DNA from: Terriglobia bacterium
GTDB lineage: Bacteria; Acidobacteriota; Terriglobia; Terriglobales; Acidobacteriaceae
Reading direction: 5' to 3'
Length of the DNA: 64,000 bases
Assembly: GCA_963732045.1 (NCBI GenBank)
Contig: CAVSYI010000008.1
Location: 63,317 to 127,316, forward strand
Part shown: positions 9,719-59,881 of the stretch, in pieces
Position numbering within the stretch: position 1 is the first letter of the stretch
Layout: each line of letters opens with the position of its first letter
Translations under genes and position numbers: made by a program
Notes under the pieces: model-generated
Databases searched by the model: none
What the model was told of the DNA's origin: nothing
What the model saw: only the letters and a program-made list of their open reading frames with translations

Positions 9719-10676
9719 TCAATACCCAAACTCCGTCGGTGCCGCGTAAGCGTGATGCTTCACCGCCAATTCTTCTACCCGGCATGCGCCCAACTGGTTC
9801 ATGTATCCGGCGCGGTCGGCGACCGCATAGACCCAGCGTTGCAACCATGCGTCGCTGTCTCGCAGAGTCTTCGTATTCTCATGATATTGCCGAAAGAAAG
9901 CGTTGTCGCGGCTGTAGTATCCCTGCACCGGCGAAGGATGCGCTCCATACCTGCACTCAACCACCGCATGAACCATAAATCCCGGAATGACGGTGCGATT
10001 GGGATCGCTGGCAATCACTTCAGCATCAACGATTTCTTCGGCCACCACGATGACTCGTTTCGCGGCGCGAACGCCTTCGATCATCACCCCGAAATTGCCC
10101 CAGCAGTGAGCGTTGCCATCACGGTCGGCACGCTGCAAATGAACAATCGCCACGTCCGGCGCAAGCGCCCGAACCGCATGCAGCTTCTGTCCACGTGGGG
10201 CCGTCGCCCAGGCGGGTCGTAGACCCGCCAGATTCCGCATCAAACGGTGACTCAATCTCCGCAAAGAATTCATTCTCACGCGCGACATCACTCCCGAGCG
10301 CAGTTCGAGTCGGCAGAAACGGCACACCCATCGCGGCCGCCTGCAGCGCCAACGCCACCGCAAAGTTCGTCAGGTTGACGATCTTCAAGCTACCCTGCTC
10401 CACCCCACGACGGAAGTTGTAAGCCGACCCCATCATCACATTGCCCACCCAAGCGGCAATGACACGCTCAACGCACCCCGCGGCAATCATCTGATCGAAG
10501 AGAATGTCTGAGATCGGACCAATTAGCGTAAGCCCATGTTTCTTCTGGCGGATAATCTCATGCCCCGCTGCAAACGGAATCATCTGCTCCATCTGCAGAC
10601 CAAGCGCCACCGAGGAGCCATCCGGCACCAACTCGGCAACCGCTTCGCGCATGGTCATGAGTTTTCCGGGAGCCAT
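9719..10676 (-). CDS. CoA-transferase subunit A (GctA/3-oxoacid CoA-transferase A family), frame-split
   Basis: ORF 10119..10676 (MAPGKLMTMREAVAELVPDGSSVALG...) continues in ORF 9719..10363 (...ALAPDVAIVHLQRADRDGNAHCWG...). 958 nt = 3n+1, junction about 10200-10240. Confidence 0.75.
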
Positions 10677-12732: not shown

Positions 12733-12812
12733 AACCACTAAGGTCACAAAGCGATCACGAAGCGAATCGCATTGCGGAAATTCCTTCGTGATCCTCTGTG
12801 TCCTTCGTGGTT
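12733..12812. repeat. Composite hairpin of the cacgaagg family, between enoyl-CoA hydratase stop and boxB-like start
   Basis: aaccactaaggtcacaaagcgatcacgaagcgaa (12733-12766) versus ttccttcgtgatcctctgtgtccttcgtggtt (12781-12812). Same unit family as 59115-59210. Confidence 0.6.
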
Positions 12813-18400: not shown

Positions 18401-18785
18401 TCGCCGCCACATTCGCGCCGATAAGCTGCACGTTGTACTTATCGAGTATGCCGCTATCGGAAAGTTCGATGGCCAGATTGAGCGCGGTCTGTCCGCCCAC
18501 GGTAGGCAGGATGGCGAATCCCTGGCCGCCCGACAGTTCACGCTCGATGCGAATAATTTCTTCCAGATACTCGCGCGTGAGCGGCTCGATGTAAGTGCGG
18601 TCGGCGATCTCCGGATCGGTCATGATGGTGGCCGGATTGGAATTCGCCAGCACCACTTCAAATCCCTCAGCCTTCAGCGCCTTGCAAGCCTGCGTCCCGG
18701 AGTAATCAAACTCCGCCGACTGGCCAATGATGATAGGGCCAGAGCCGATGATCAGAATTTTCGAAATGTCAGTGCGTCGCGGCAT
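15465..18785 (-). CDS. carB: Carbamoyl-phosphate synthase large subunit, split over five frame changes
   Basis: ORFs 18117..18785, 16103..18226, 16204..16482 and 15556..16176 together read as a colinear CarB. Examples: [22 protein letters not shown]..., [12 protein letters not shown]..., [33 protein letters not shown]-like domain. My translation of a last frame gives [37 protein letters not shown], stop 15465-15467. Junctions near 18150-18200, 16410, 16260, 16130, 15580. Confidence 0.9.
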
Positions 18786-20419: not shown

Positions 20420-20499
20420 TCATGCTCCAGGGAGTGGATTTTCAGAATTTTAGCAGGGATACGAATTTCGCGAAACAAATGATTTCGATGATTTGGATT

Positions 20500-20596
20500 T
20501 TCTTCGCGAACTTTGCGGATTTCCTTGGCGTCCTTCGCGGTAAAAAGCTCTTAACCGCAAAGATCGCGAAGAAAGGCCGCGAAGTTCGCGAAGGAA
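20500..20596. repeat. Composite hairpin (cttcgcg units) starting 5 nt after lepB stop
   Basis: ttcttcgcgaactttgcggatttccttggcgtccttcgcggt (20500-20541) versus aaccgcaaagatcgcgaagaaaggccgcgaagttcgcgaaggaa (20553-20596). Confidence 0.6.
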
Positions 20597-20600
20597 TTCC

Positions 20601-21619: not shown

Positions 21620-21697
21620 ATCACCACAGAGGACATGGAGGACACCGAGAAAAACTACCTTGTCACCTCTGTGTCCTCCGTTTCCTCTGTGGTTGAT
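21620..21697. repeat. Composite hairpin (ccacagagga/ggaggaca units) upstream of lolA-like gene
   Basis: atcaccacagaggacatggaggacaccgag (21620-21649) versus cacctctgtgtcctccgtttcctctgtggttgat (21664-21697). Confidence 0.55.
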
Positions 21698-25502: not shown

Positions 25503-25594
25503 CAGTCGTCAGTCTTCGGTCGTCGGTCTTCAGCAAATCCCTGATAGACGGTTCCGTGGTTGGCTGACGACTGACGACCGAAGACTGACGACTG
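25503..25594. repeat. Composite hairpin (cgtcagt/cggtcgt units) starting 3 nt after gspE stop
   Basis: cagtcgtcagtcttcggtcgtcggtcttcagc (25503-25534) versus gctgacgactgacgaccgaagactgacgactg (25563-25594). The outermost 22 nt of each arm (5' end of the left, 3' end of the right) are perfectly complementary. Confidence 0.65.
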
Positions 25595-27707: not shown

Positions 27708-28306
27708 TGCAGTTGGGAACGGAAGACCGGAAGAAAACGATTGCAGCCGTCGCACTGGCCGTATTGGCCCTGGTGCTGGTAGTGATGCGTTTTATTCCCG
27801 GTTCGCCCGCATCCGCCAAAGCCCCGACTCCGGCCGTGGTGCCCGAGGTGGCATCCCGCCCGGTACGCTCCGCACGGACCACGGGCACCAGAACCGGAGC
27901 AAAGAAAAAAGCTCTCAGCACCGCACCCCGCTCACTCGATCCGACGCTTCGCTATGACTGGCTTAAGGCCAGCGAGGACACCAAGTACTCAGGCACGGGA
28001 CGAAACATCTTCCGCGCGGAAGTCGAGATTCCGAAACCGATCGTGTCGGTCATGAAAAAGCCGGTGGTTCAGGTGCCGCAGGGACCGCCTCCGCCCCCAC
28101 CCATCAATCTCAAGTTTTTCGGCTTTGCCAACAAACCCGGAGAAGCCAAAAAGATCTTCCTGTCGCAGGGAGAGGACGTGTTCATCGCCGGAGAAGGCGA
28201 CATCATCGATCGCCGTTACAGGATTCTCCACATCACGCCGGTCTCGGTGGAAGTGGAAGATGTGCTGAACAATAACCGGCAGAGTATTCCGTTGACGCCG
28301 GGCTAA
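27707..28306 (+). CDS. PilP/GspC-like periplasmic component (Pro-rich linker plus small beta domain)
   Basis: 199 aa. TM, PPPPPP tract, C-terminal KFFGFANKPGEAKKIFLSQGEDVFIAGEGDIIDRRYRILHITPVSVEVEDV. Start overlaps pilO stop. Confidence 0.4.
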   Translation: MQLGTEDRKKTIAAVALAVLALVLVVMRFIPGSPASAKAPTPAVVPEVASRPVRSARTTGTRTGAKKKALSTAPRSLDPTLRYDWLKASEDTKYSGTGRNIFRAEVEIPKPIVSVMKKPVVQVPQGPPPPPPINLKFFGFANKPGEAKKIFLSQGEDVFIAGEGDIIDRRYRILHITPVSVEVEDVLNNNRQSIPLTPG

Positions 28307-28309
28307 ACT

Positions 28310-28397
28310 CGTCGTTGGTCCTTGGTCGTTGGCCTTTGGCCGTTCGGCTTTGGCTTTTCGTCTTTGGCCAACGACCAAAGGCCAAGGACCAACGACG
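28310..28397. repeat. Composite hairpin (ttggtcc/ttggcc units) starting 4 nt after stop at 28306
   Basis: cgtcgttggtccttggtcgttggcctttggcc (from 28310) versus ggccaacgaccaaaggccaaggaccaacgacg (to 28397). The 7-nt units are permuted between arms. Confidence 0.6.
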
Positions 28398-28410
28398 CTT
28401 TTGAACTCTT

Positions 28411-34820: not shown

Positions 34821-35171
34821 TTAGACGCGGAGAGGAATCGTACGAGGGGGATCAGGCGACGAGACTGTTGCACTACCAGAATCGTTACGCGTAGAGATCA
34901 GCAACGCAGCTGGTTGACGTTGAACCGCGACCCCGACAACCAGAGGCGGTCGCGGAGTTGCAGCAATTTGTAGCAGAGCAGAATTATGCCCAACCTGGCA
35001 GCAGCGATAGGATGGCGTCGGCGCAGGAGACGTCGCACCCTGCTGGTGGCAACCGCCAGCAGGAACGGTCCCGGCGTGCATGGTCCCGGTTTCTTGCCAG
35101 GGCAACAAAACCGTCGCCAATCCCAGCACCAGAAGCACCGCGAGCACCCTGGAAGCGCGTTTCTCCATCAC
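34821..35171 (-). CDS. Small secreted Cys/His-containing protein (116 aa), unknown function
   Basis: Signal peptide MMEKRASRVLAVLLVLGLATVLL. GGCHQQG...YRCCQVGHNSALL. Immediately upstream (same strand) of the Met/His-rich OMP. Confidence 0.4.
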   Translation of the reverse strand: MMEKRASRVLAVLLVLGLATVLLPWQETGTMHAGTVPAGGCHQQGATSPAPTPSYRCCQVGHNSALLQIAATPRPPLVVGVAVQRQPAALLISTRNDSGSATVSSPDPPRTIPLRV

Positions 35172-35239
35172 TGCTCATTATATGCGCGAGCCATCACAGA
35201 CTTAAAAAGGAATGAATGGATCAGTTAAAATAAACGCAA

Positions 35240-35278
35240 GCCGGGATGGCGGAATTGGCAGACGCGTTGGACTTAGGA
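35240..35278 (+). repeat. Direct repeat / attL: copy of tRNA-Leu(UAG) nt 1-39 (acceptor 5' strand, D-arm, anticodon 5' stem and loop)
   Basis: gccgggatggcggaattggcagacgcgttggacttagga. Nt 1-25 are identical to 38520-38544 and nt 26-39 to 43618-43631. It diverges after the anticodon loop, with no pairing 3' stem. Confidence 0.85.
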
Positions 35279-35828
35279 ACCTCAAACAGAATTGCGAGGA
35301 ATTGCACGAAGTTGCAAGGGCTTCTGTTTATGCGGGTTTTAGCGATTCAGGCTGGCAACGGCTTGCACGGAATAGCACCAAATTACAAACCAAACTGACA
35401 CCAAAACTGAAACCAAAGTTCCACTTCTTGAACGGCATAATCTAAAAACGTAGCCACAGCGCTTCCTCCACTCTTTCAAGCTTGTTCCCTTTGACTAGAC
35501 CGGCGCGCCAACTCTCAAAGTATTCGCAGAGTGTCGTCATGTGGGAATCCTGAGAGCGAAACGATGTCTTGCAATAGCATTGCCTTCCCAGGCATCATCA
35601 CGGACAAAACTTTTTCGGATTGCTTGTCCACCACTTTCGCTCCAGGTGTTCGATTTTGACATTGCAGACCCGCGGTGACTACCACGTAACGACTTCGTGC
35701 AGGAAGTTGGTACGGAACGAACGGGAGGACAATCGCAAAGGCGATAGGAAAACAGCTTAGCTGGAGGAGGAAATGGTGAGAGCGACACGCACAAGAATGT
35801 ACATCCGATGAGGTATGCCCTCCGTTGA

Positions 35829-37097
35829 CTACCCGGTAGCACGCATAGAATTGCTTCCCGAGCCGAGAGGCACACGAGCGTGGATCGTGGTGCCACGCTT
35901 GGGTTGCGATTCGATTGAAAACGTTCCGTTCACCAATTTTAGCCGCTCCTCCATGCTGATCAGGCCCAAGCCTCGGCTCTCCCTTGCAACTTGGCTAACA
36001 AAGCCCGAGCCGGAGTCGCTAACCGTGAGATGAATCTCCTCCGAAGTTTCCCACAGTTGCGCTTGGAAGTGCCGTACCCCGCTGTGTTTTGCCGCATTGT
36101 GGAGGGCTTCTTGCAAAACTCGGAAGAGGCAAAGATCAACGTCCGGTGACAAAGGGCTAGGCAAATCGTGGGTTTGGAGGTCAATCTCCACTTTCTGCTT
36201 CTCGCCGAATTCTCGGCAGAAGCTTCTCATGGCTCCTGCAATACCCAGATATTCCAGTTTCGCCGAATGCAACTCGTGCGACAAGAATTGAATATCGGCC
36301 GCTATCTCGGAGGTCTGTTTTCGCAGTTCACCGATGCGGCTTGGGACTTCAGACAAATTGGGAGGGCTTTGTTGGAGTTGATCTAACTCGATGGTCAACA
36401 TTGCAAGACGTTGACCGATGTCGTCGTGGAGTTCTCTGGCAATCCGGGAACGTTCCTGCTCTTGTGCCTCCATCATCCTGCGGCTTACGTCTGCAAGGGC
36501 AGCTTCAGCCAGTTTACGCTCGGTGATGTCAACACTAATCCCGATGTAACCCTCAAACGAACGGTCCTGAGTAAACCTCGGTACTCCAATGCCTAGCATC
36601 CACCGATACTCTCCGTCGTGCCGCCGTAGCCGATACTCAATTGTGAATTTCTCTTGCCGATTAAAGGATTGCGAGTAGGTTTCGAGACTCCGCTGCAAAT
36701 CCTCCGGGTGGACACCTTCTGTCCAGCCTTTTCCAAGCTCCGCATCAAGTGATCGTCCGGTAAAATCCAGCCAAGTCTTGTTGAAGTAGGTGCGGAGTTT
36801 GTCCGTGCGCGCCATCCAGATCAACGCCGGAGCAGCGTTGGCGACCAATCGGAAGCGTTCTTCGCTCTCGCGCAGTTTATCTGTGGCTTGCTGCCGCCAA
36901 CGCTCGTAAAGGAGAACCACAAATCCGACACAAATGGCAGCTATAACGTCGTCCAAGAGCGCTAAGAAACCATGAACATTATGAACGTTCAGCCAGACTG
37001 TTAGCCCGCTCCCAAGAAGAAAGACGCAAACACTCGCGCCGATGCTCTTGAATGCTCCACTCCAGCCGTGACTCCACTTGCTGGACTCTTTTGTCAT
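35829..37097 (-). CDS. PAS-domain sensor histidine kinase (HisKA_3/NarX-DesK type), no cognate regulator adjacent
   Basis: 422 aa. Two N-terminal TMs, PAS (FRLVANAAPALIWMARTD...), H-box ARELHDDIGQRL, HATPase (HNAAKHSG...DSGSGF...GLGLISMEERL). Confidence 0.85.
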   Translation of the reverse strand: MTKESSKWSHGWSGAFKSIGASVCVFLLGSGLTVWLNVHNVHGFLALLDDVIAAICVGFVVLLYERWRQQATDKLRESEERFRLVANAAPALIWMARTDKLRTYFNKTWLDFTGRSLDAELGKGWTEGVHPEDLQRSLETYSQSFNRQEKFTIEYRLRRHDGEYRWMLGIGVPRFTQDRSFEGYIGISVDITERKLAEAALADVSRRMMEAQEQERSRIARELHDDIGQRLAMLTIELDQLQQSPPNLSEVPSRIGELRKQTSEIAADIQFLSHELHSAKLEYLGIAGAMRSFCREFGEKQKVEIDLQTHDLPSPLSPDVDLCLFRVLQEALHNAAKHSGVRHFQAQLWETSEEIHLTVSDSGSGFVSQVARESRGLGLISMEERLKLVNGTFSIESQPKRGTTIHARVPLGSGSNSMRATG

Positions 37098-37540
37098 ATA
37101 CAGCTCAAACTAGCTTTATCGCAATCGGGAGGAGCGCATCGGGCATCCTGAGGCAGTTGTCCCTCATGTCTGATTCACTCCTGCGCAATGAGTGAATCGC
37201 CCATGTACAGTTTACACCTCAAGCTGGTGGATGGCTTTAAGCTCGGCTCTTAAACTGGCAATTATTTCCTCTTTTTATTCTTCCTCGGTCAATAATCGAT
37301 GGCGACCTAGCAAAAGTGCTAGCTGACTAGGCACATGAGAGCAGGTATTCTGGGCCAGTTCAGAATCGCAACGCGGTCATGGGCAAGTGTTCGGGAAACC
37401 GACGTTCGGACCCTCACGACTGCATTGCCTTCATTCATGTATCGCTTAAAGCCGGACCATGCAGGTTCGGCTTTTTTGCTCTTAAGGAATTTCTCCAACC
37501 CCAATCAGGCGTCGCCCGGAATATAGCTTCGCCACCAGAA

Positions 37541-37995
37541 TCAGCGACCAAAATGTGCGCGTGAGCGACGCGAGTTTTTCAAAGGCTCCAGCCGGGCCAC
37601 CAATATGATTAGCAACCCGAAGGCTGTCAGAAACGCCATCATCAGTAATGTGGTGAGAATCGAATAAGCCGTCCATCGTTTCCATCGGCTATCGCCCGAA
37701 AATCGCCAGGCGAACAAGAGCAGGACCAGCAGCGAAGAATTGAAGGCGATCAAATTGCAAACCAAATGCAGCGGCTCGTGAATGAAGATCGCATCACCAG
37801 CCACACCGACCCCAGACAGAAATTGAAAGGTTGGAATCAGGACTGCGCCCCGCCCTGCGCCCAGCTCTCTGCCCAGCGCTAAGGCAAATGTCATCAACAT
37901 CAGCCCAAAGACAAGAAAAATTAATCCGTTGTGCCACCCTAAAGCAGTGAATTCAAGGGCGCTGATCGTCCCCCGCAGTGTGTCGTAGTTTGCAG
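37541..37995 (-). pseudogene. DUF998-like membrane protein, 5'-truncated
   Basis: Protein-like part of ORF 37541..38254 begins about ...YDTLRGTISALEFTALGWHNGLIFLVFGLMLMTFALAL, followed by 4 more TMs. The first roughly 40 aa expected for the family are replaced by integrase antisense sequence. Confidence 0.5.
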
Positions 37996-38463
37996 CCCTG
38001 GCCCCCAGATAGACCTTACGATTTGCCTTGATCCTGGCGATACCAAAAATGACGAAGGTCGCACGATCAAGATGACAACTGAAGTCTATGATCTTCTGAA
38101 GCAGTGCGTGGCTGGAAAAGCTGGAAGTGATTATGTGTTTACCAGAGACGGCAGGCCTATCTTGGATTTCCGTGGGGCATGGTGGGCGCTCTGCGTAAAG
38201 GCTGGCGTGGGGAAATTCGGAGCCAAAGACAAGCGCGGTAAACGTCCCTATCAAGGGCTCTCTTTCACGACCTCAGGCGTTCTGCTGTTCGCAATATGGT
38301 GGCGGCTGGAATTCCCGAAGTAGTTTGCATGAAGATCAGTGGCCACAAGAGCAGATCGGTATTTGATCGCTATAATGTCGTATCGACTTCTGACGTGGCA
38401 GAAGCAACGCAGAAGCTCGAAAATCGGAAATTGCAGGCTAAAATGGAACTGACACAAAACTAG
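37970..38463 (+). pseudogene. int: Tyrosine recombinase/integrase, C-terminal catalytic fragment only (plus one frame change)
   Basis: Own translation: ...PQIDLTICLDPGDTKNDEGRTIKMTTEVYDLLKQCVAGKAGSDYVFTRDGRPILDFRGAWWALCVKAG... Then in another frame [45 protein letters not shown]...*, with HxxR, GH and the catalytic Tyr. The N-terminal SAM-like domain and box I Arg are missing. Confidence 0.8.
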
Positions 38464-38519
38464 CACCAGCACTTCAGAGACAACATGGAAAGTCGCTGAA
38501 GACCGCATAAACACTACGT

Positions 38520-38544
38520 GCCGGGATGGCGGAATTGGCAGACG
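38520..38544 (+). tRNA. tRNA-Leu(UAG) nt 1-25 (5' piece of interrupted gene)
   Basis: gccgggatggcggaattggcagacg, identical to 35240-35264. Ends inside the 3' strand of the D-stem. Abuts 43618 to give a complete tRNA. Confidence 0.85.
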
Positions 38545-38833
38545 TACATCGGCCGGCGCGTCCGCCTCAAGTTCATCGATGACATCAGGAAGGCGAATGC
38601 CCAGAAGAGGAAGCGGCCGTCGACCGTCTCCTACAGCGATGCCATTCTCCTCCCGCCGGCTCCGACGGTGTCTATCGGACGCCTAACCATCACTGCCATG
38701 TATGCCAGGACGTTTTACGCGAAGAGGAAGGATGCAAAGCACTGTAGCGAACGGTGTCAAAAAAGAGCCGAACGGGTGATTGTCGGAGATAAGTTACGAA
38801 TAGGTTTGACGAAGAGGGAAAAAGGGCAAAGCC

Positions 38834-39407
38834 ATGAAGAAGCAAATCGAGCAATTGAAGAAACAGATCGCGGACCTGCAGGCGTTCTGCGCGGTCCTGA
38901 CGCCGGTCTTTGAGAAAGAGTATCGGCGCAGGAAGAAGGCGAAGGCTCTGTGACACCCGAAAGAGAAAAGAGCTCCAAGAGATTGTTGCGGAGCAGGTCG
39001 CCGAGAGATGGCCGCCGAGGCCGCCGTCGACAAGATCGCGGCCATGAAGCCCAGATCTTCGAAGCCGGAGGGGTGGGACTTCGAGGAGGAGCGCGCAGAG
39101 CACGCTCTTCAGCAGAGGCAGAGGGCTCGGGTGGCGAAGCGGCCGGTGCGCAGGAAGCCGGCGCCGGAGTGTCCTCCGAGGCTATTTCCCATGGGAAAGC
39201 CAGGGTACTTCGTCAACGATGAATTTGAAATCGTCGGTCCCCGCGGCCGCAGGCTCAGCACAGACGCTTCACCCCTACACCGGCCGGCCACGGGTCCAGG
39301 TTTATGTTGAGACAAATATGGAGGGTAAGCGGTTGAGGGCGTGGCTGGATCCGGAAGAGGAGTACAAGAAAGCCTATTTGCTGAAGTACGGTGTAGATCC
39401 TGCATGA
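38834..39407 (+). CDS. Hypothetical coiled-coil protein (frame changes likely)
   Basis: MKKQIEQLKKQIADLQAFCAVLTPVFEKEYRRRKKAKAL, then KELQEIVAEQVAER / AAEAAVDKIAAMKPRSSKPEGWDFEEER... / ...VQVYVETNMEGKRLRAWLDPEEEYKKAYLLKYGVDPA in shifting frames. Confidence 0.3.
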
Positions 39408-39655
39408 CGGTGTAGTTTTTGGCATGGCACTGTTTTTAGAATCGCGCAGTAGAATTAGAAATCAATTCTCTCTACTCCGGCTCAGAAAAATGCTACACCG
39501 GTGTAGAAGTTGCGAGTGGCCGACAGTGAAAACGCAGTTGCGACCGCAGCTGTAAAGTGTTGATTCTATTACTGCGGTTTTACTGCGGTTTTGACCTCAG
39601 CTGCGGACAGTTGGCCGATCAGTTGGCAGCCGCCAGCTCAGAAATCCCTTCCCGA

Positions 39656-39949
39656 ATGACCCCACGTAAGAAAACCCGCACCTACTATGGCAAGCCATGC
39701 GACCGCCACGGCGACGTTCTCCGGTACAGGAGTAGCCGCGGATGTGTCGAGTGCGCTTATGAAGCCAGCCAGCGGTATGCTGCCGACAACCCCGTCAAGA
39801 AGCGTCAGCAAGACCGGCGATGGAAGCGCATCAATAGAGAGCTGATCTCCAAGCGCCGGACGACTCCAGAGTATCGCGCGCAAGTCCGAGCCTATTACGC
39901 CCGCCGTGGTAATCGTTGCACCCCATCGACCACGCTCAAAGCCGCATAA
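39656..39949 (+). CDS. Small Zn-ribbon-like basic protein (phage-type)
   Basis: ATG 39656 within ORF 39557..39949: MTPRKKTRTYYGKPCDRHGDVLRYRSSRGCVECAYEASQRYAADNP... Confidence 0.4.
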   Translation: MTPRKKTRTYYGKPCDRHGDVLRYRSSRGCVECAYEASQRYAADNPVKKRQQDRRWKRINRELISKRRTTPEYRAQVRAYYARRGNRCTPSTTLKAA

Positions 39950-40179
39950 ATAAAGGGTCGCGCAGCCCGACGCCCGCACACAAAGTTCGGCCGCTCAGCC
40001 TAGGGAGCCTTGATTTCTTTCCAGAACGAAAGCCGGCCGGAGAGCCCCCTGCGCGGCGCCTACATGTAGTGGCGCGACCGCAGAACTACATTTTTGCCAG
40101 TTGAAATATTTATTCAAAGAAATCAAAGAAATCAAAAAGTCCTGCGTTTCCAAGGACTTCCGAAGGGAAATAATCAAAC

Positions 40180-40878
40180 ATGAAATCAAAGAAATCAAAG
40201 CGCGGCGGAGCCCGTTTGGGAGCCGGCCGGCCACCAAAACCCCAGGCTGGCGCGCCAGAACAAGTCCTATCCGCTCCGATTTCCATCCTCGATCGTGACG
40301 TAGCCACCCTCACCGACGACGAGCGCCGAGAGTATGACGCCGCGGCGATTGCCGAAGGCTGGCGCCCTTCGACGGCCGTCCTCCTAGCCTGCTTCCAGCA
40401 TGACCACTCAAAAAACGAACGGCTGACCTGGGAGGAATGGCGCTCCAACCTCCGGAACCCCTCCGTGGTGCCGACGGTTCAGCCAGAACCCCTCCGATGG
40501 AGTGTCCAAAGCCAGTGCTACGAGCCGATTTCAGCCCCTTCAATTTCCGACGTAGTCCAGCCTACCCCTTTCGTAGAATCGCCTCCTACAGAAATAGCCT
40601 CCTGCAAGTCCTTTCCCTGCAACACCGAAAAACAAGAAAATGACGACTTTTCGACGCAGCCATCACCGCAGCCGGTCCCATCCCCTTCACCTTCGCGCCT
40701 TGACCGCGCAATCGCAATCGAAGCCAGCCGGCCCCGCCCAAGCGCAGTCGAGCAGGCCATCTTCCAGGCCGACCAGCCCTCCACTCGCAGCCGCTCCTAC
40801 ACCTACTCCGAAGTCGAAGGCATGCGACCGACGTCCGGCAATCGATCGCACGATACCTACGAGCCGGCAACGGACTAA
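40180..40878 (+). CDS. Hypothetical protein with N-terminal GAGRPPK-type basic motif and Pro/Ser-rich C-terminal half
   Basis: 232 aa. MKSKKSKRGGARLGAGRPPKPQAG. This motif is common at N-termini of phage DNA-binding/small-terminase-like proteins, from recollection only. Confidence 0.45.
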   Translation: MKSKKSKRGGARLGAGRPPKPQAGAPEQVLSAPISILDRDVATLTDDERREYDAAAIAEGWRPSTAVLLACFQHDHSKNERLTWEEWRSNLRNPSVVPTVQPEPLRWSVQSQCYEPISAPSISDVVQPTPFVESPPTEIASCKSFPCNTEKQENDDFSTQPSPQPVPSPSPSRLDRAIAIEASRPRPSAVEQAIFQADQPSTRSRSYTYSEVEGMRPTSGNRSHDTYEPATD

Positions 40879-40881
40879 CCC

Positions 40882-41425
40882 ATGATCAGAAGAAGACGCC
40901 ACCTCCTCCCACCGCCTCCTCCCCCTCCCAAGCTCAAGATCCCCGAACCCTCGCCGGTCGTAATGATTCGCTTCGAAGATCAATGGCGAGTTGAACTCCC
41001 CAAGATCACACCAACGGCTGGCACGTCAGATTTTCCAGGCGCCGACCGTCGATGAACTCGTGAAAAAGCTTTGCCGAGCATTGCATCACGCTCAAGCAAC
41101 AATCGCGATTCTGTCCCAGCAGTTCCAGAGAACAAGAAAGGTAGATCATGTCCGACGCAACACAGCAGCATCATCTCGAAGTTTCACGCTGCACCCATGC
41201 GCAGGTGGAGACCATCGCCAACCAAGGGCACGCGGATTCGTAAACGCCGTCCTCCAGCTCTCCGAGAACGCCGGCAAGCAAGCCGGCGCCATCTGCGAGA
41301 ACAGCTCACTGTTGTCTCGAGCTGATCGAAGTCGACCGCACGCTAACCGCCTCGCTGAAGAAGCAAACCGTCTCGAGCCGGTCACTCTTCAAACGCATCT
41401 TCGGCAAACTCTAAACCCCTCGGAC
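40882..41425 (+). CDS. Hypothetical protein(s), frame changes
   Basis: MIRRRRHLLPPPPPPPKLKIPEPSPVVMIRFEDQWRVELPKI..., continuing in ORF 40991..41476 and ending ...SLFKRIFGKL* (taa 41423-41425). Confidence 0.25.
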
Positions 41426-41436
41426 TTCGAGCCGAA

Positions 41437-42142
41437 TTGCCTGGAGAGAAAAGAGCCACCTTGTTTTTCTTCTTAGAACACTCCAACATCCACCGTGCCC
41501 TCCAAGGCGATCGTCCAGCCGTCCTAAAAGCCAAGGACGTGGAATCATGGGAAAGCCTCGCTCAGGAGTACGGCATCACCATCGTGTCAGACTCAGCAGC
41601 CGGGAATCGTGAGAGCCGAACATCCTCCAATCAACCCCCGAAAAGCTGATGCGTTATCTCCAAGAGGCCGGCATTCAAGCCATTTCATCGAGATCGAAGA
41701 CGTTTTCTGCTTCTCCCCCAAGACCATTGAGGCCGGCGCCCTTGACGGTATGTTTCGCAGCACGCCGCGCAACGTCAAAGAAGCCCAGGCAAGAGACGCT
41801 CTGACCCAATCACTTCAGGGCATCGCGACAGATCGAATCATGGGACGAGATGAAGAATCTCTTGTGGTCGGTCATCCCCGCTGAAGGCCTCACCATCGGT
41901 GGCCCTGGAGCCGACATGTCCGACGAGACGTTGAGAAGACTGTCGTCGAGCAAATGCGAAAGGCCGGCATCAAGCTTCCAGACGATCCAGGCGACGGCTG
42001 GCGTACTCAAGGCACGGGACAGAATCTCGACGGCTGGCACGGTCTGACGCCGGAGCAAGAATACGAACAGTTCCACAAAGAGACACCCAAGGACCGCAGC
42101 AGCGCCGTCCCCGCTGGCTTCGGTGACGAAGATTACAGATGA
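41437..42142 (+). CDS. Hypothetical protein(s), frame changes
   Basis: ORFs 41437..41649, 41609..41884, 41850..42047 and 41954..42142 overlap head-to-tail in different frames, consistent with one or two genes broken by indels. Confidence 0.25.
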
Positions 42143-42316
42143 TCACCCGCCCTATCTCTGATCGACGCTTTGAACTGTCGGAGGCCGACATCCGCTCTCT
42201 CTCCCGCGGACTCCTCACGACCTCCGGCAAAACTTCAACCCCGCAGAAGTGAAACAGATCCTCCATGAATCACTCCGGCTCGCTGTCACCACAAATCCCA
42301 ACGAAGGAAGAATCCG

Positions 42317-42574
42317 ATGAACACTCTCCGCACCTACCTCCGCTCCTACCTCGGCATCGTTGATCCTTTGCCGGCAACCGAACCTGTCACCATCGCGCCT
42401 TGTGGCTGCAAAGAACAACTCACAGAAATTAAGAAGCACTTGGCAGCTCTCACCGGCGAATGCGTGCTACGTGTCCCAGGCTTTCTCGCGTTGACCGAAC
42501 ACCAGCGCGGCATTGCAATCGAAGCTCTGGCAAAAGCCCGTGGAGTTGAAATCCCCGCCGGCACCGTCCAGTAA
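42317..42574 (+). CDS. Hypothetical protein (85 aa)
   Basis: Intact ORF MNTLRTYLRSYLGIVDPLPATEPVTIAPCGCKEQLTEIKKHLAALTGE... Confidence 0.35.
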   Translation: MNTLRTYLRSYLGIVDPLPATEPVTIAPCGCKEQLTEIKKHLAALTGECVLRVPGFLALTEHQRGIAIEALAKARGVEIPAGTVQ

Positions 42575-42626
42575 CCTCCACCTCTTAACCCTCCGGTGCG
42601 CACCGGAAGAAGAATCTCCCTCCCAA

Positions 42627-43617
42627 ATGTTCAACGTAATTGAGAATCCCTCCCCTGATTCCGCCGACGACGTAGAGCCCCAAGCTCCGGCGCCGGCAAT
42701 TCCCACCTCCCCGATGTGATCAACTCCGTCGCCCAGGCTCCTGTCGCCCAGGCAACGCAAGCTCCTGTTCCAATGTGGAAGGGCATCCTGGCCGGCGCTC
42801 TCGCCGGTCTCGCTGGTGCCGCCGGCAGCAAGTCTTTCGGCGCCGGTCTCGCTGGTGGTGCTGGTGGTGAGCTTCGGCAACAACAGCAGAACATCGAAAA
42901 CGATCAAGCCGGCGAAGGCGCAGGCTTCCGCATCAAGTTTCAGGACGCGCAGTCTGCAAACCTCGTGGCCGAAGCGCACATCAAGGATATGCAGCTTCAT
43001 TCATTGCCACAGGAACTGCAAGATCAGGCGAACGAGCAGCATCAACCTCGACAAGCAGCTTCAGGATCTCGGCCTTCAGTCCCGTTATCGTCGCACCCAA
43101 CACCAGCGACGGAGCCGAGACGGCAATGAAGCAGTTGACTGACACTCATGGTGGAGTGCCGCAGTTGTTCGTTCACAACACCGGTGGTCAGTTGATCGGA
43201 TACGACCTGGGTCAGCTCTCCCAGTCGCCACAGATCGTCAACAAAGTGAATCAGTATCGTGTGATGACTGGGCAGGATCCTATCGACGCCCAGACTTTCC
43301 GCCAGATACCACCGCAGAACAAGAAGGACCTGATTTCCCAGGCTCTCAGCTTCGGCACCGAAGTCCCCACAAAAGCGAATGCGGTAGAGCTGGCGCAGAA
43401 GTACCAGAACTACGCGGACGCTTACCGGAAGAACCAGGATGCGATCTCACGGTTCAGGCGAAGCTCGACGACACCGCGAAGCATTACGCAGATATGTCAG
43501 CCGGCCTCGACAGACACGAAGTTAAACAGGCTGGAGCGGTTCAGGCTGCGAAAACGCAGGCTGAGGTGGCGAACAAGCCGAGCCGTGGTGATTCGGATCC
43601 TGTGGTTGCTGCGACTC
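42627..43617 (+). CDS. Hypothetical Gly-rich membrane/structural-like protein(s) running into the tRNA junction (frame changes; 3'-open at insert end)
   Basis: MFNVIENPSPDSADDVEP..., WKGILAGALAGLAGAAGSKSFGAGLAGGAGG, MKQLTDTHGGVPQLFVHNTGGQLIGYDLGQ..., ...AKTQAEVANKPSRGDSDPVVAAT. The reading frame is still open at 43617. Confidence 0.3.
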
Positions 43618-43678
43618 CGTTGGACTTAGGATCCAATGCCCAAAAGGCGTGCAGGTTCAAGTCCTGTTCCCGGCACCA
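43618..43678 (+). tRNA. tRNA-Leu(UAG) nt 26-86 (3' piece of interrupted gene)
   Basis: cgttggacttaggatccaatgcccaaaaggcgtgcaggttcaagtcctgttcccggcacca. Anticodon stem TTGGA/TCCAA, loop CTTAGGA, long variable arm, T-loop TTCAAGT, acceptor TCCCGGC pairing with GCCGGGA of 38520, discriminator A, CCA encoded. Confidence 0.85.
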
Positions 43679-43945
43679 CTTCATACGCTCTTCGGCCTCA
43701 CCGATCTGAGTTCCGCGGACCCTGACTCGCACCTTCGCAAGAATTCTCCCATAAGCGACTGAGCGCCGGTCAGAGCCCGCGATAGCCGACGCCCTCGGTA
43801 ACTTTTATAGATTGCTAACGCTCATTGGCAGTGGAATCTTCTTATGAAGCGCAGAAATCCTGAAGAGGTCAAATATCCACGAGGTTGTTCGATGTCCAGC
43901 GCCGCTAGCAAAAACTACCTTGTGTCTGATTCAGTTGATATTTCT

Positions 43946-44561
43946 TTAGGAGCTCTGCACCTTTTCGCACCTTCTGCCGCTCCACAACCCGCCAAAGCCG
44001 GAGGCTAATGCGTCACGCATCTGAAGACGGGCTCGTGAGAGTCTGGTCTTCACATTCGCTTCGGACAGCTTAAGGATCTGCGCGGTTTCCGTGATACTGA
44101 GGTGGTTTACATCGCGCAGTATCAATATCTCGCGGTATTTCTCGGGGAGAGACACCAGGGCCTTGGTCAGCGCATCACGAAGTTCGCGGCGCTCCAGAGC
44201 CTGCGAAGGGATTTCGCGCCAGTCCGCGAAATCCTTTGGGATGTAATCGCCGTCGTCGCTTTGCTGTCCCTGTTCGATCGATTCGTACAAGTAGCGACTG
44301 TCCTTGCGTAGCCGCATTTTCGCTTCGTTGATCGCGATTTGGATCAGCCACGTGCTGAACTTTGCCTCCTGACGAAAGCGTGCCAGAGCTTTGAAGGCTT
44401 TCAGGATGGCCTCTTGTGCCACCTCTTCAGCGTCCGCATCGTTTTTCACGATCGCCACGGCCGCAAGAAACACGGCACGCTCGTACGGCCGGACCAGTTG
44501 GTAGAAAGCTTCGGCATCAGCTTCGCCGACAAGCCATCAAACCTCCAATCTCTCTGGCCAT
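43946..44561 (-). CDS. ECF-type sigma-70 family RNA polymerase sigma factor, frame-split near 5' end
   Basis: ORF 43946..44473 (region 2: FLAAVAIVKNDADAEEVAQEAILKAF...FSTWLIQIAINEAK; region 4: ILRDVNHLSITETAQILKLSEANVKTRLSRAR). The upstream frame gives MAREIGGLMA from cat at 44559-44561. 616 nt = 3n+1. Confidence 0.8.
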
Positions 44562-45832: not shown

Positions 45833-47617
45833 ATGAGCGACACAGTCGATTCCGCTGCCCAAAGTCACTCTCGAGTCGCCAGGAAGGCGACGACGCACCC
45901 AATCCCAGGATCACAAGTCGATATTGGTTCACTCTCAGCACCACCCGGGAAGAGCGATTCTTTCTGGTGCTGGCTGTATTCATCGGCGTATTCTCAGCGC
46001 TGGCGGTCGTGTGCTTTCGCCTGGCCATCGACTGGAGCAAAATCTGGTTGCTCGGCCCAGTGCCTGAGCCACATAACTGGCGCCTGATTGCCGTCCCTGC
46101 GCTCACCGAGTCTGGTGGTGGCTTTTCTGGTGATTCATGTTTTTCCGTTGGCTCGCGGTAGCGGCGTCAACCAAACCAAAGCTGCTCTCTATATCTATAA
46201 CGGATACATTCCATTTCGAACCGCGGTGGGGAAATTCATTACTGCTGCCCTGGCGATCGGTTCCGGGCAGTCGCTGGGACCGGAGGATCCCTCACTGCAA
46301 ATCGGCGCCAGCCTGGCCTCGGCACTGGGACGACGTCTCGATCTTTCGCGCGAGCGCCTGCGTCTTCTGGCGCCGGTGGGCGCTGCTGCTGGACTGGCCG
46401 CCGCCTTTAATGCACCGATCTCGGCCGTTCTGTTCGTTATCGAAGAAGTAATCGGTCGCTGGAGTGCGGGCATACTAGGTTCGGTTGTCCTCTCGGCGAT
46501 TTCAAGCGTAGTAGTAGTGCGCTGGTTTCTGGGCGCTGAACCTCTTTTCCGCATTCCCGCCGTTGGTTTGGTGCAGCCTGCCGAGTTGCTGGCCTACGCG
46601 ACGCTTGGGCATCGTCGGCGCATTCGCCGCGGTATTCTTTGCCAGGGCCATCGCATATTTGCGGCCACGCCTGCGCGCCTGGCCCCGTTGGACACAATAT
46701 TTCCAGCCGATGATGGCCGCTGTGGTGATTGGCCTGATCGGTTTTCTGGGCGCTCCCCAGGTGATGGGAGCGGGCTACGAATATATAGACCAGGCCATGC
46801 ACGACCAGTTCACCTGGAAGATGCTGGCCATTCTGGCTCTGCTGAAAATTATCGCCACCACTTTGTCATTCGTCACCGGCACGCCAGGCGGAATGTTCGC
46901 TCCCACACTTTTTGTCGGGGCCATGCTGGGAGGCGCAATCGGAGGTTTGGAACGTCACTTCTATCCGGCGTTCACCGGATCCACCGGCACTTACGCTTTG
47001 GTCGGCATGGGAGTACTGTTCGCGGGATTTCTCCGCGCGCCGATGACCTCGGTTTTCATGGTGCTTGAAGTCAGTGGCAACTACTCCATTATCGTGCCCG
47101 TGATCGTTGCCAATACGTTGGCGTATGTTATTTCCCGGGCTTTGCAGCCTACACCGATTTTCGACCTTCTCACTCGCCAGGACGGCCTCGACTTGCCATC
47201 GCTCGAAGAACAACGGGAACAGACAGTGCTACGCGTCGAAGATGCGATGAGGCCGCACCTACTCCGGTATTGAACGGCGGAGATTCCGTGGACCAGGCGT
47301 TACAACGCGTACAAGATTTGTCCGGAGATTTTTTAGTGCGATTGCATCCCAGTGGTTGGAGAAGCGTGACTGCCGACACTCTGAAACGTCTCGCGGGCGA
47401 GGGCAAAGGAGAGATGACCTTGGGCTCGGCGCTGGTTACCCCGGCTCTGCCCTACCTCCATCCCGATCACACACTCGAGACTGCTCTCCGCTACGTCTAT
47501 CAGGTCCCATTTGTTCCGGTTGTGCATCGCGCCGATTTCGGCCACCTCGAAGGGGTAATCTCGCGCGATGAAGTGCTGGAGAAATACAGGATGGCGCAGC
47601 GCGATGAAACTGACTAA
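45833..47617 (+). CDS. ClC-family chloride channel/antiporter with C-terminal CBS pair, at least 4 frame changes
   Basis: ORFs 45833..46087, 45763..46161, 46088..47068, 46563..47273 and 47270..47617 read colinearly. GSGVNQTKAA, IGSGQSLGPEDPSLQIG, GTPGGMFAPTLFVGA, then CBS-like LPYLHPDHTLETALRYVYQVPFVPVVHRADFGHLEGVISRDEV. Confidence 0.8.
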
Positions 47618-47774: not shown

Positions 47775-49463
47775 ATGCGCAAAATCATTTCGATATCATC
47801 CATTTTCCTCCTCTTACTCGCGCCTCTCGCTTGGCCCCAAGCCACGAAAATGCCGGTCAGCCGGCGAGGACCGAGTGTCGCCACCGGCAGCCAGGGCGTC
47901 GTTGTCTCCGGTAGGCCTGTCGCCACCGCAGCTGGCATCAAGATTCTGAAACAGGGCGGCAACGCTGCTGACGCAGGCGCCGCTACTCTGCTCGCACTCT
48001 CCGTGACCTATGTAGGCGCGTTCTGCGTGGGAGGAGAGATCCCCATTCTGGTTTACAACGCCGACGGGAAAAGCGTGAAGCTGCTGGAGGGACAAGGCGA
48101 AGCTCCACGCGATCCCAAAGCGATCGCCTGGTACATGAAACACGGAATCCCGGACGGGGACGTCAAGGCAGCTGCCGTGCCCGGCACGATCGATGCAATC
48201 GTCACCCTGCTGAAACTTTACGGGACCAAGAGTCTCGATGAGGTCGTGCAGCCGACGCTGGCCATTCTGGACGCTGGCGGCCCTACTTGGTATATCGACA
48301 CCGGCAGCGACAAGAAGATCGAAACCGGCGTGCACTGGCAGGCGGATATGGCAGTGACCTTTCGCAAACTGGTGGATTCTGAAAAAGCAGCGAAAGGTAC
48401 GCGGGAGCAGAAACTGCAGGCTGTCTCAGACCGTTTCTATCGCGGCGACATCGCCGATGCCCTCGAAGCCTGGTATACGGAAAAGGGAGGTTTTCTTCGC
48501 AAGGCGGATCTGGCCGCGCACAAAACTCCAGTGGTCGATCCGCTCCAAACCACCTACCGAAGCTACACGATTTATAAAGCGGGTCCTTTGACGCAGGGTC
48601 CTTATCTCGCACAGACGCTGCGCCTTTTGGAAGGCTTCGACCTGAAGAAGATGGGGTTCAATTCGGCGGACTACATCCACACGGTAATTGAAGCGGAGAA
48701 ACTGGCGCTGGCAGATCGCGACGAGTATTACGGCGATCCGAACTTTGTGAAGGTGCCGATGCAGCAGTTGCTTTCCGATCAGTACACCGAAATGCGGCGC
48801 CATCTGATCGATCCAAAAAAGGCGTCTCTCGAGCTCCGTCCAGGCGATCCCTACAACATGAAAGCCACCAAGCCGCCCACCATTACCGGCCCGTGGCATG
48901 GCGGAACCACCGTCATGTGTGTGACGGATAAGTGGGGGAACGTCATCGCGGCCACTCCCAGCGGCCTGTCAAGCACAGCGGGCGTAGCAGGACGTACGGG
49001 AATTATTCACGGCAGCCGACTCAGCAGCCTGAACACATTTGCGGGAACTCCGAACGTGATCGAGCCGGGCAAACGGCCGCGAATCACACTGAGCCCCACG
49101 CTGCTTTTCCATGACGATCAACCCGTGATGGCGATCTCGGTAGCGGGAGGCGACCAACAGGACCAGGCAGCCATCCAGGTCATCCTTAATTACGTCGAAT
49201 TCGGCATGAATCCCGAGGAAGCGTTCAAGGCGCCGCGTTTCTCCACGACGCATTTCATCAGCTCCTTCGGTCAGGACCGTGCCACCCTGGGCAGCCTCTC
49301 TGTGCCCAACAACTTACCCGAAGCAGTTCAGGACGAATTGAGATCTCGCGGCCACTTGGTAACTGTGATCCATGAGGGAGTGGGCGGAGTGGCGCTGATC
49401 GGCATTGACCCCAAGACCAGGCAGGCTACTGCGGTCGGTCCGGCCGCTGGAAAAATGGAATAG
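47775..49463 (+). CDS. ggt: Gamma-glutamyltransferase family protein
   Basis: 562 aa, signal peptide, autoprocessing/nucleophile region PWHGGTTVMCVTDKWGN, ISVAGGDQQDQ. Confidence 0.85.
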   Translation: MRKIISISSIFLLLLAPLAWPQATKMPVSRRGPSVATGSQGVVVSGRPVATAAGIKILKQGGNAADAGAATLLALSVTYVGAFCVGGEIPILVYNADGKSVKLLEGQGEAPRDPKAIAWYMKHGIPDGDVKAAAVPGTIDAIVTLLKLYGTKSLDEVVQPTLAILDAGGPTWYIDTGSDKKIETGVHWQADMAVTFRKLVDSEKAAKGTREQKLQAVSDRFYRGDIADALEAWYTEKGGFLRKADLAAHKTPVVDPLQTTYRSYTIYKAGPLTQGPYLAQTLRLLEGFDLKKMGFNSADYIHTVIEAEKLALADRDEYYGDPNFVKVPMQQLLSDQYTEMRRHLIDPKKASLELRPGDPYNMKATKPPTITGPWHGGTTVMCVTDKWGNVIAATPSGLSSTAGVAGRTGIIHGSRLSSLNTFAGTPNVIEPGKRPRITLSPTLLFHDDQPVMAISVAGGDQQDQAAIQVILNYVEFGMNPEEAFKAPRFSTTHFISSFGQDRATLGSLSVPNNLPEAVQDELRSRGHLVTVIHEGVGGVALIGIDPKTRQATAVGPAAGKME

Positions 49464-59094: not shown

Positions 59095-59114
59095 GAACGG
59101 TGTTTGCTAAGACC

Positions 59115-59210
59115 AATAACCACGAAGGACACTAAGGTACACGAAGGAAATCCAAGAGTTCACGGGGACGGGGCATTCCTTCGTGTTCCTTAGTGTCCTT
59201 CGTGGTTATT
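59115..59210. repeat. Composite hairpin of the cacgaagg family between modB and modC (intra-operon)
   Basis: aataaccacgaaggacactaaggtacacgaaggaa (59115-59149) versus ttccttcgtgttccttagtgtccttcgtggttatt (59176-59210), 34/35 complementary. The right arm overlaps the modB stop (59206-59208). Confidence 0.7.
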
Positions 59211-59881
59211 GCACTCCTTTCCAGATCCACACCCGCCGGTTCAACCCGTAGACAATCGCAAGCGTAACGAACGAGATCGCCAGTAATACAAGAGCAGTCG
59301 CATTCGCGCCGGAGTAGTTGACCGCTTGCACCTTGTCGTAGATATCAATCGAAACCGTTCGCGTCACTCCGGGGATGTTCCCTCCCACCATCAACACGAC
59401 CCCAAACTCGCCCATAGTGTGGGCAAAGCTGAGAGCGACCCCGGTCACGAGTCCGGAGAGCGACAGAGGCAAAATGATCCGGAAGAATGTCCTGATCCGG
59501 GAAGCGCCCAGCGTCTGCGACGCCGCCACCAGCCTCGGGTCCACAGCCGAAAACGAAGCGGCGAAGGGCTGCACCGCGAACGGAAAACTGTACAGAATCG
59601 AACCGATCACCAGGCCTTCGAAGGTGAACGCCAGGGTGTGTCCGGTAAGTAGCCTGCCAGCCCCGTCCCAGCGGACTGTGTGGTCCAAGCGCAACCAGCA
59701 CGTAGAAACCCAGCACCGTGGGAGGCAGAACAATGGGCAGGGCAAAGACTGCTTCGACGAGGAATTTCCAGCGCCAGCGCGAGTAGGTGATCCAGAACGC
59801 CACCGGAAGCCCCAGCACGACCAGAATGGCAGCAACCAGTGCGGATAACCGGATCGTGAGCCAGAATGCCTGCCAGTCCAT
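59206..59881 (-). CDS. modB: Molybdate ABC transporter permease, frame-split
   Basis: ORF 59345..59881 (MDWQAFWLTIRLSALVAAILVVLGLPVAFWI...LPPTVLGFYVLVALG) plus ORF 59206..59835 (...SQTLGASRIRTFFRIILPLSLSGLVTGVALSFAHTMGEFGVVLMVGGNIPG, EAA-loop region). 676 nt = 3n+1. Confidence 0.8.

Follow-up and report, generated by a model that had tools for sequence, protein, structure and literature searches.

A stretch of 64,000 nucleotides from a Terriglobia bacterium (contig CAVSYI010000008.1, positions 63,317 to 127,316; hereafter the window) carries a transfer RNA (tRNA) gene that is broken into two pieces by foreign DNA. The gene is that of tRNA-Leu(UAG). The interrupting sequence, here called block B, lies between the two tRNA halves and is exactly 5,073 bp long. 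We hold with high confidence that the block came from a phage and was inserted, as a fragment, into a tRNA gene that was once intact. It is an arbitrary internal piece of a larger phage genome and not a discrete element, because genes are cut at both of its ends and it has no recombinase, no repeats and no target duplication. Coordinates refer to the window, and tRNA nucleotides are counted in linear numbering, which also defines the insertion point as nt 25/26. The pieces of the tRNA gene and the open reading frames (ORFs) of the block are the following.

38520–38544, plus strand: tRNA-Leu(UAG) nt 1–25, comprising the acceptor 5' strand, the D-stem, the D-loop and part of the D-stem 3' strand; sequence GCCGGGATGGCGGAATTGGCAGACG.

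38545–43617, plus strand: inserted block B, 5,073 bp, of foreign composition, with coding signal mostly on the plus strand and without target-site duplication, terminal inverted repeats or recombinase.

38545–38790, plus strand: 5'-truncated ORF at the left end of the block, in phase with its base 1 and ending in the zinc-ribbon-like tail ...HCSERCQKRAER.

39557–39949, plus strand: zinc-ribbon ORF, matching PHROG families only weakly (phrog_15231 and the endonuclease VII family phrog_1035).

40180–40878, plus strand: longest intact ORF of the block, 232 aa, with an N-terminal RGGARLGAGRPPKP motif; no relatives found except itself.

42713–43617, plus strand: gene truncated at its 3' end, from an uncharacterised family of phage virion-module proteins of about 550 aa, with two frameshifts (near 43040–43078 and near 43440), cut by the junction.

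43618–43678, plus strand: tRNA-Leu(UAG) nt 26–86, comprising the anticodon arm with TAG, a long variable arm, the T-arm, the acceptor 3' strand and CCA.

Joined end to end, the two tRNA pieces are identical at 86 of 86 nucleotides to the tRNA-Leu(tag) that ARAGORN calls in a relative (L081). The 61-nt 3' piece reads CGTTGGACTTAGGATCC...CCCGGCACCA, and chance matches to the two pieces arose in 0 of 100 shuffles. Neither ARAGORN nor Rfam calls a tRNA at 38520–43678, because the gene is split. The D-stem is broken in its 3' strand, with 7 nt left before the anticodon loop. The junctions read GCAGACG/TACATC on the left and GCGACTC/CGTTGG on the right, and they have zero bases in common. The flanks consist of nt 1–25 and nt 26–86 without overlap; there is no target duplication, and a search for terminal inverted repeats of the block found none. 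The insertion point is the centre of a palindrome, ACG/CGT (window 38543–38546 / 43616–43619). Only two centres of 6-bp palindromes occur in the 86-nt tRNA: this one and GGA/TCC, the point at which the attachment-site (att) identity of a neighbouring island ends (35276–35281).

The site without the block is seen in relatives. A tyrosine-integrase remnant lying just 5' of the tRNA has more than 1,000 homologues, and in all four readable contexts the integrase ends 9–40 nt before an intact tRNA-Leu(tag). These contexts are two contigs of 443 kb and 172 kb (L081 and L082) and two short JGI contigs (L083 and L084). Their integrase homologues are 68–90% identical, and the sequence is continuous from the integrase into the tRNA. 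Nucleotide homology to L083 and L084 extends from 38005 and 38011, respectively, to 38544 and resumes at 43618 on adjacent bases. Since the homologues of 38544 and 43618 are neighbours, nothing was duplicated or lost at the target. Block B is an insertion into a formerly continuous tRNA gene, with no target base gained or lost. A first-pass annotation of the window had placed a 5,073-bp insert between nt 25 and 26, with neither target duplication nor shared core and with no terminal inverted repeats. The two tRNA pieces and their adjacency in L083 and L084, the junction sequences with a target contiguous in relatives, and the search of the block ends all agree with that description.

The tRNA-Leu(UAG) gene is inactivated by the block, and we know of no bacterial machinery that would rejoin tRNA halves split in this way. 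CTA codons are used in host genes at 3 per 1000. Because the split gene is inactive and the host genes use CTA, a second tRNA-Leu(UAG) copy is probably present elsewhere in the genome.

The phage origin of the block is seen in the gene at its right end. An exhaustive HMMER search with a 110-aa ORF of this gene (43126–43455), the one with the strongest coding signal in the block, gave 54 relatives of approximately 330–700 aa, mostly 480–630 aa, which align at residues ~200–300; phmmer E-values for the gene go down to 1e-19. A family profile of 548 positions was built from 25 of the relatives. In hmmsearch it matches two frames of the window: 42713–43039 corresponds to profile positions 43–146 (E = 1.6e-52), and 43078–43443 to positions 160–279 (E = 1.6e-37). 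With tblastn the match continues in a third frame up to the junction, which corresponds to about residue 374 of 574. The missing ~200–210 C-terminal residues, some 40% of the protein, were found neither at the left end of the block nor elsewhere in the window.

Members of the family occur among phage structural genes. One lies on a 24.6-kb JGI contig with Phage_capsid_4, Endonuclease_7 and an SU10-type adaptor, followed by a 1,485-aa protein. Others lie on three IMG/VR contigs of 37–39 kb and in one prophage inside a 403-kb contig. Among uncultured phages with an SU10-type adaptor, the family is conserved in the virion modules. Its architecture (L090, L091–L093, L094) comprises a Gly-rich N-terminal segment, a confidently modelled core at ~130–330 and a long helical tail. 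The AlphaFold model has a pLDDT of 66, with the core above 90, and its Foldseek matches are weak and lead to uncharacterised proteins of uncultured tailed phages. The family has no match in Pfam or PHROG, and the member protein P0128 has none among GenBank phages. Five phage or prophage loci with the family gene were compared with block B by tblastx and tblastn, and this gene is all that they share with it.

A gene is cut at the left end of the block too. The frame in phase with base 1 has G or C at the third position in 36 of 41 codons before any start codon (p = 2.8e-5). It is this signal, together with the 41 codons that contain no start, that identifies the truncation. The codon-usage score of the frame is comparable to that of host genes. 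The first-pass annotation had also pointed out that joining the right end to the left would close the last ORF after 12 codons, and had taken this as compatible with a circular or permuted donor. The arithmetic is correct. The closure is meaningless, because the homologues continue ~200 residues past the junction and that sequence is absent from the left end of the block and from the window; a circular or permuted donor is therefore unsupported.

The remaining contents of the block are sparse in recognisable genes. Pfam finds no recombinase, capsid or terminase among the plus-strand ORFs, as the earlier annotation had stated for the block itself, and no HUH, DEDD, serine or tyrosine transposase was found among them with Pfam and PHROGs, ORF calls being possibly degraded by assembly indels. 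Neither PF00589 nor another recombinase was detected within 38545–43617 with these two databases, which recognise nothing in the block ORFs besides the weak matches of the zinc-ribbon ORF. When this ORF was compared with the Endonuclease_7 genes of the family phage loci, only a marginal 18-residue match emerged. The DNA of the block matches neither GenBank phages nor PLSDB plasmids. A concatenated 1,368-aa query of all its ORFs returned nothing from a word-indexed protein database, where the candidate list was probably saturated (~8,000). A second, cleaner concatenation returned the window's own ORF only, and IMG/VR scans with three single proteins of the block gave no match. In composition the block is foreign: its 4-mer distance of 0.197 lies above those of all 47 host windows of equal size (maximum 0.189). 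Rfam, run on 35000–44000 at gathering and at E <= 1 thresholds, gave only a weak tRNA match. No intron RNA family was matched in this interval, and a group I or group II intron was rejected on that basis.

A helper-dependent satellite or other non-autonomous element could be imagined, for which a recombinase or nuclease supplied in trans would target ACG/CGT in the D-arm of tRNA-Leu. The clean insertion at the exact centre of a 6-bp palindrome, with neither target duplication nor terminal inverted repeats, would suit such an element, as would the lack of relatives for most of the ORFs. Yet a conserved phage gene is cut at the right end and a coding frame at the left, and closing a circle leaves the truncated gene incomplete. 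The window, 99 loci and a metagenome scan aimed at the insertion site yielded neither a second copy nor a recurrence. We regard this explanation as highly improbable. If it were true, both the sublocation within the tRNA and the insertion chemistry, with no duplication and no shared core, would be undescribed for integrative elements. The earlier suggestion of a cryptic satellite or prophage fragment using an unrecognised mechanism thus divides: the family of the right-end gene supports a phage fragment, and neither a satellite nor a new mechanism is supported.

The quality of the assembly bears on both the gene content and the junctions. Three overlapping ORFs make up what should be a single carB gene (window 15556–18785, minus strand): CPSase D1/D2, D2-D3-D1-D2 and MGS. 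A CLC chloride-channel gene (window 46088–47273, plus strand) is split in two, with the halves matching profile positions 3–170 and 162–346. There is roughly one indel per 1–2 kb in these two genes, and, carB being essential, the frameshifts point to uncorrected assembly indels. The broken ORFs of block B, including the two frameshifts of the phage gene, are probably mostly sequencing errors and say little about decay. The appearance of the block as a set of ORFans is probably due in part to the same errors. That label was applied in the first-pass annotation; most of the ORFs lack relatives, and the right-end gene has 54.

The same weaknesses raise the question of an assembly artefact, in which a chimeric or strain-mixed long-read contig would have put phage sequence into the tRNA. 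The sequence behaves like an unpolished long-read metagenome assembly, as the fragmentation of carB and the CLC channel illustrates, and the relatives come from long-read projects of metagenome-assembled genomes (MAGs). On the other hand, an artefact would take two false joins made independently, after which the tRNA continued at precisely the following nucleotide although no repeat was there to misguide the assembler, and ORFs of the block have 100%-identical public counterparts (P0121, and P0176 on a 132-kb contig). Because the tRNA resumes base-perfectly, misassembly is unlikely, and we assign it only a very small chance of being the cause.

The DNA immediately 5' of the split gene has a history of its own. 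Between 35282 and 38519 lies a genomic island, island A, whose features are as follows.

35240–35281, plus strand: upstream 5' fragment of tRNA-Leu(UAG), the left attachment site (attL) of the 5'-side island; nt 1–39 are exact, nt 40 is a mismatch and nt 41–42 match.

35829–37097, minus strand: sensor kinase with PAS, HisKA_3 and HATPase_c domains, cargo of island A.

37541–37960, minus strand: putative membrane-protein ORF inside island A, with no family assigned.

38005–38509, plus strand: tyrosine-integrase remnant (PF00589, 34.9 bits), reading toward the tRNA.

The first 25 nt of the tRNA recur at 35240–35264, on the same strand and 3.28 kb upstream of the copy at 38520. This upstream copy, preceded by a promoter-like TTAAAA...TAAAAT, runs through the whole anticodon loop and then diverges; direct-repeat identity stops at the 3' edge of the loop. 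The integrase lacks its 5' part. From 38005 onward it matches residues 57–209 of a 90%-identical metagenomic homologue (P0001), with frameshifts near 38262 and 38450 and a stop about 10 nt before nt 1 of the tRNA. An IMG/VR scan with the remnant gave no match. The listed membrane-protein ORF extends to 38254, its upstream portion being antisense to the integrase remnant.

Islands that leave a 5' fragment of the tRNA gene are an established minority, with 159 of 3919 islands in the Islander database, where anticodon-centred phage-type attachment sites (attP) are common (PMC4383910). Examined against this class, the locus shows the integrase, the fragment on the expected side and in the expected orientation, and an end of identity at the anticodon loop. 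Without block B, 35240–38544 is a small, decayed tRNA-gene island of this known minority type, and it is defunct because its integrase is truncated and frameshifted. The tRNA-derived direct repeat and the integrase remnant belong to island A and not to block B. The earlier statement that recombinase and repeats are absent is accordingly true of the block and untrue of the locus, where the remnant abuts the tRNA and the tRNA repeat lies at 35240–35281.

The relatives show comparable integrases beside the tRNA, at 10001–10759 in L081, 9622–10762 in L082, 230–913 in L083 and 2503–3018 in L084. All four are short (171–253 aa) and start within or after the core-binding domain; they are either conserved relics or have lost their start codons to frameshifts. 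With the integrase stop only 9–40 nt from the tRNA, the tRNA promoter must sit inside the integrase coding sequence. In the closest relative, L083 (923–2454), the tRNA is followed on its 3' side by a full 377-aa integrase and an HTH_17 (excisionase-like) gene. As the tRNA in L083 has integrases on both sides, tRNA-Leu(UAG) is targeted from both directions by different integrase types and is an integration hot spot in the clade.

A hot spot invites the explanation that a complete prophage or a second island integrated site-specifically in the tRNA gene and was later deleted down to 5 kb. The integrase remnant on the 5' side and the full integrase with HTH_17 on the 3' side in a relative are in keeping with this. 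One phage that carries the same virion-protein family has a 394-aa integrase adjoining tRNA-Leu(CAG), and the right junction at nt 26 lies near the usual start of anticodon-type att identity blocks (Islander class A). Against these points, no true att junction would interrupt a structural gene at ~60% of its length, and in the prophage L091 some 8 kb separate the gene from the tRNA end, near which the integrase lies. Only one tRNA copy turned up when the second att end of this prophage was sought. No tRNA duplication flanks block B, and two deletions would both have to stop exactly at nt 25/26, without overlap or gap. Such a remnant is, in our estimate, improbable.

The position of the crossover in island A raises a further scenario. 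Identity in the island ends at nt 39, placing the crossover in the anticodon loop, to the right of block B, and the block thus falls, in formal terms, inside the island, with the integrase remnant on one side and the att core on the other. The block might then have entered the island's own 5' copy of the tRNA before the island integrated, and would have arrived as island cargo, the tRNA being broken upon integration; its insertion would still have been free of homology. Relatives with 77–90% identical integrase-tRNA modules carry no insert, though, and the integrase at this locus is inactive, lacking its 5' part. Selection would also act against an island that destroyed its target tRNA on entry. 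The scenario differs from a later insertion in timing and not in mechanism, and we consider it doubtful.

Insertion of block B by an integrase was rejected as well. The anticodon-loop overlap used by the integrase family of island A lies 7 nt away from the break, and genes are cut at either end of the block. Known crossover sublocations in tRNA genes are the anticodon loop, the T-loop and the T/acceptor junction (PMC4383910). The D-stem break lies outside all of them, and integrase action on the block is unlikely both for this reason and because it falls outside the anticodon-loop overlap. Of the two hallmarks of tyrosine-integrase islands, an own or adjoining integrase and a regenerated tRNA with a displaced fragment, block B has neither, the adjacent remnant being that of island A. 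Nor does the locus fit a prophage of the large-serine-recombinase type: no 2-bp crossover dinucleotide is shared, the target is contiguous in relatives, and no resolvase or recombinase domain is present.

Comparison with known systems separates the two components of the locus. Island A resembles the 5'-fragment islands of the Islander collection (PMC4383910) in that its integrase reads into the tRNA and the nt 1–39 repeat lies upstream in the correct orientation; block B differs from them in having neither integrase nor tRNA duplication. With cryptic prophage remnants the block shares phage-derived genes, a foreign composition and a tRNA hot spot. Such remnants normally keep at least one att junction or adjoin an intact tRNA, whereas the junctions of block B cut genes and split the tRNA. 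Insertion sequences and transposons of the IS200/IS605, IS91/ISCR, IS110/IS1111, IS607 and Tn554 groups resemble the block in lacking target duplication and terminal inverted repeats and in inserting at a defined short sequence. In contrast to these, block B measures 5 kb rather than 1–2 kb, is single-copy and has ends that cut coding sequence. Interrupted tRNA genes are themselves known: group I introns occur in the anticodon loops of bacterial tRNA-Leu genes, and introns and split tRNAs occur in archaea. Here, too, a tRNA-Leu is broken by non-tRNA sequence, but in the D-stem instead of the anticodon loop, and by 5 kb of protein-coding phage DNA.

The best explanation, which we hold with moderate confidence, is capture of a phage fragment by end joining. 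The proposed sequence of events is as follows. (i) Island A would have integrated 5' of tRNA-Leu(UAG), leaving the direct repeat of nt 1–39 and a regenerated tRNA. (ii) Later, and independently of the island A integrase, a double-strand break may have occurred at the ACG/CGT centre, nt 25/26. (iii) Into this break, a linear 5,073-bp piece of internal sequence from a tailed phage would then have been ligated without homology. (iv) The joining itself would have been non-homologous end joining (NHEJ) of the Ku/LigD type, or another form of illegitimate joining. Block B shows what end joining should leave behind, namely no homology, no duplication, no specific ends and an arbitrary piece of a larger molecule. 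Illegitimate recombination, one of the possibilities listed in the first-pass annotation, is favoured on these grounds: the phage piece is arbitrary, and no homology exists at the junctions.

Precedent for this kind of event is experimental. NHEJ captures heterologous DNA at chromosomal breaks in bacteria, as demonstrated in Sinorhizobium meliloti (Dupuy et al., Nucleic Acids Research 2019, PMC6379672), and a reported enrichment of conventional NHEJ in Acidobacteria extends to Terriglobus and Granulicella (PMC7719229). The block is likewise a homology-free, linear foreign fragment without its own machinery or a target duplication, and its host phylum is the one reported to be enriched in Ku and LigD. 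It differs from the laboratory case as a natural event reconstructed from sequence, in which the source of the break, Ku/LigD and the donor ends are unobserved and the junctions at the target are entirely clean. Both tRNA halves are perfectly conserved and the block is foreign in composition, which suggests that the insertion is recent. The metagenome scan, directed at this D-arm followed by a base other than C after nt 25, found no comparable insertion. The result is consistent with a one-off event.

Several points weigh against end-joining capture. No Ku or LigD gene was seen in the 64-kb window. Zero bases lost or gained at the target is a cleaner outcome than that of many NHEJ events. The site is suspicious for a purely random event: it falls in an att region with the remnant of an integrase next to it, and the tRNA has only one other 6-bp palindrome centre besides the one used. 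Detectable phage relatives exist for only one gene of the block. The junctions lie in an assembly that has indel errors. Finally, loss of tRNA-Leu(UAG) should be costly to a host that uses CTA at the rate given above.

The palindrome centre could hint at a blunt cut by a dimeric nuclease. However, the host shows no avoidance of CGCG or ACGCGT, with observed/expected ratios of 0.94 and 1.0, respectively. Cut-and-paste by one and the same restriction enzyme is unsupported, as these sites are not avoided and the ends of the block are not CG...CG.

If the junctions hold in reads, the locus is a natural case, resolved to the base pair, in which a soil bacterium acquired phage DNA without homology. 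This route of transfer has been shown in the laboratory and is rarely caught in genomes, where such insertions usually come without a landmark; the split tRNA is the landmark here. No new mobile-element mechanism is revealed. The locus adds a further example to an already known kind of event and sits at an otherwise ordinary island of a minority type. Two practical consequences follow for genome annotation: tools that find tRNA-gene islands from pairs of fragments would set the wrong boundaries here, and in long-read MAGs rich in frameshifts an ordinary phage gene can pass for an ORFan.

Some further observations concern the surroundings. A gamma-glutamyltranspeptidase gene 4 kb to the right of the tRNA (window 47775–49463) is unusually conserved in unconserved surroundings. 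It recurs in 80 Terriglobales MAG loci (L001–L080) with 80–94% protein identity and 76–90% DNA identity, and none of these loci shares the window flanks or the tRNA. By these matches the host belongs to Terriglobales (Acidobacteriota). The search pattern with a non-C base after nt 25 also brought up two loci, L087 (minus strand) and L088 (11337–11515), in which a tandem copy of the promoter and the first 25 nt, followed by 11 nt and the acceptor 3' strand, precedes tRNA-Leu(UAA). This copy resembles a mini tRNA-like deletion derivative. Elsewhere in the window, long imperfect inverted repeats lie between genes at 12781–12812, 20495–20600, 21623–21693, 25503–25594, 28305–28402 and 59114–59211. 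They are made of short periodic motifs, for example GGTCGTTGG/CCAACGACC and CCTTCGTGG/CCACGAAGG, with related copies 46 kb apart, and they look like a family of repetitive extragenic palindromic (REP)-like repeats.

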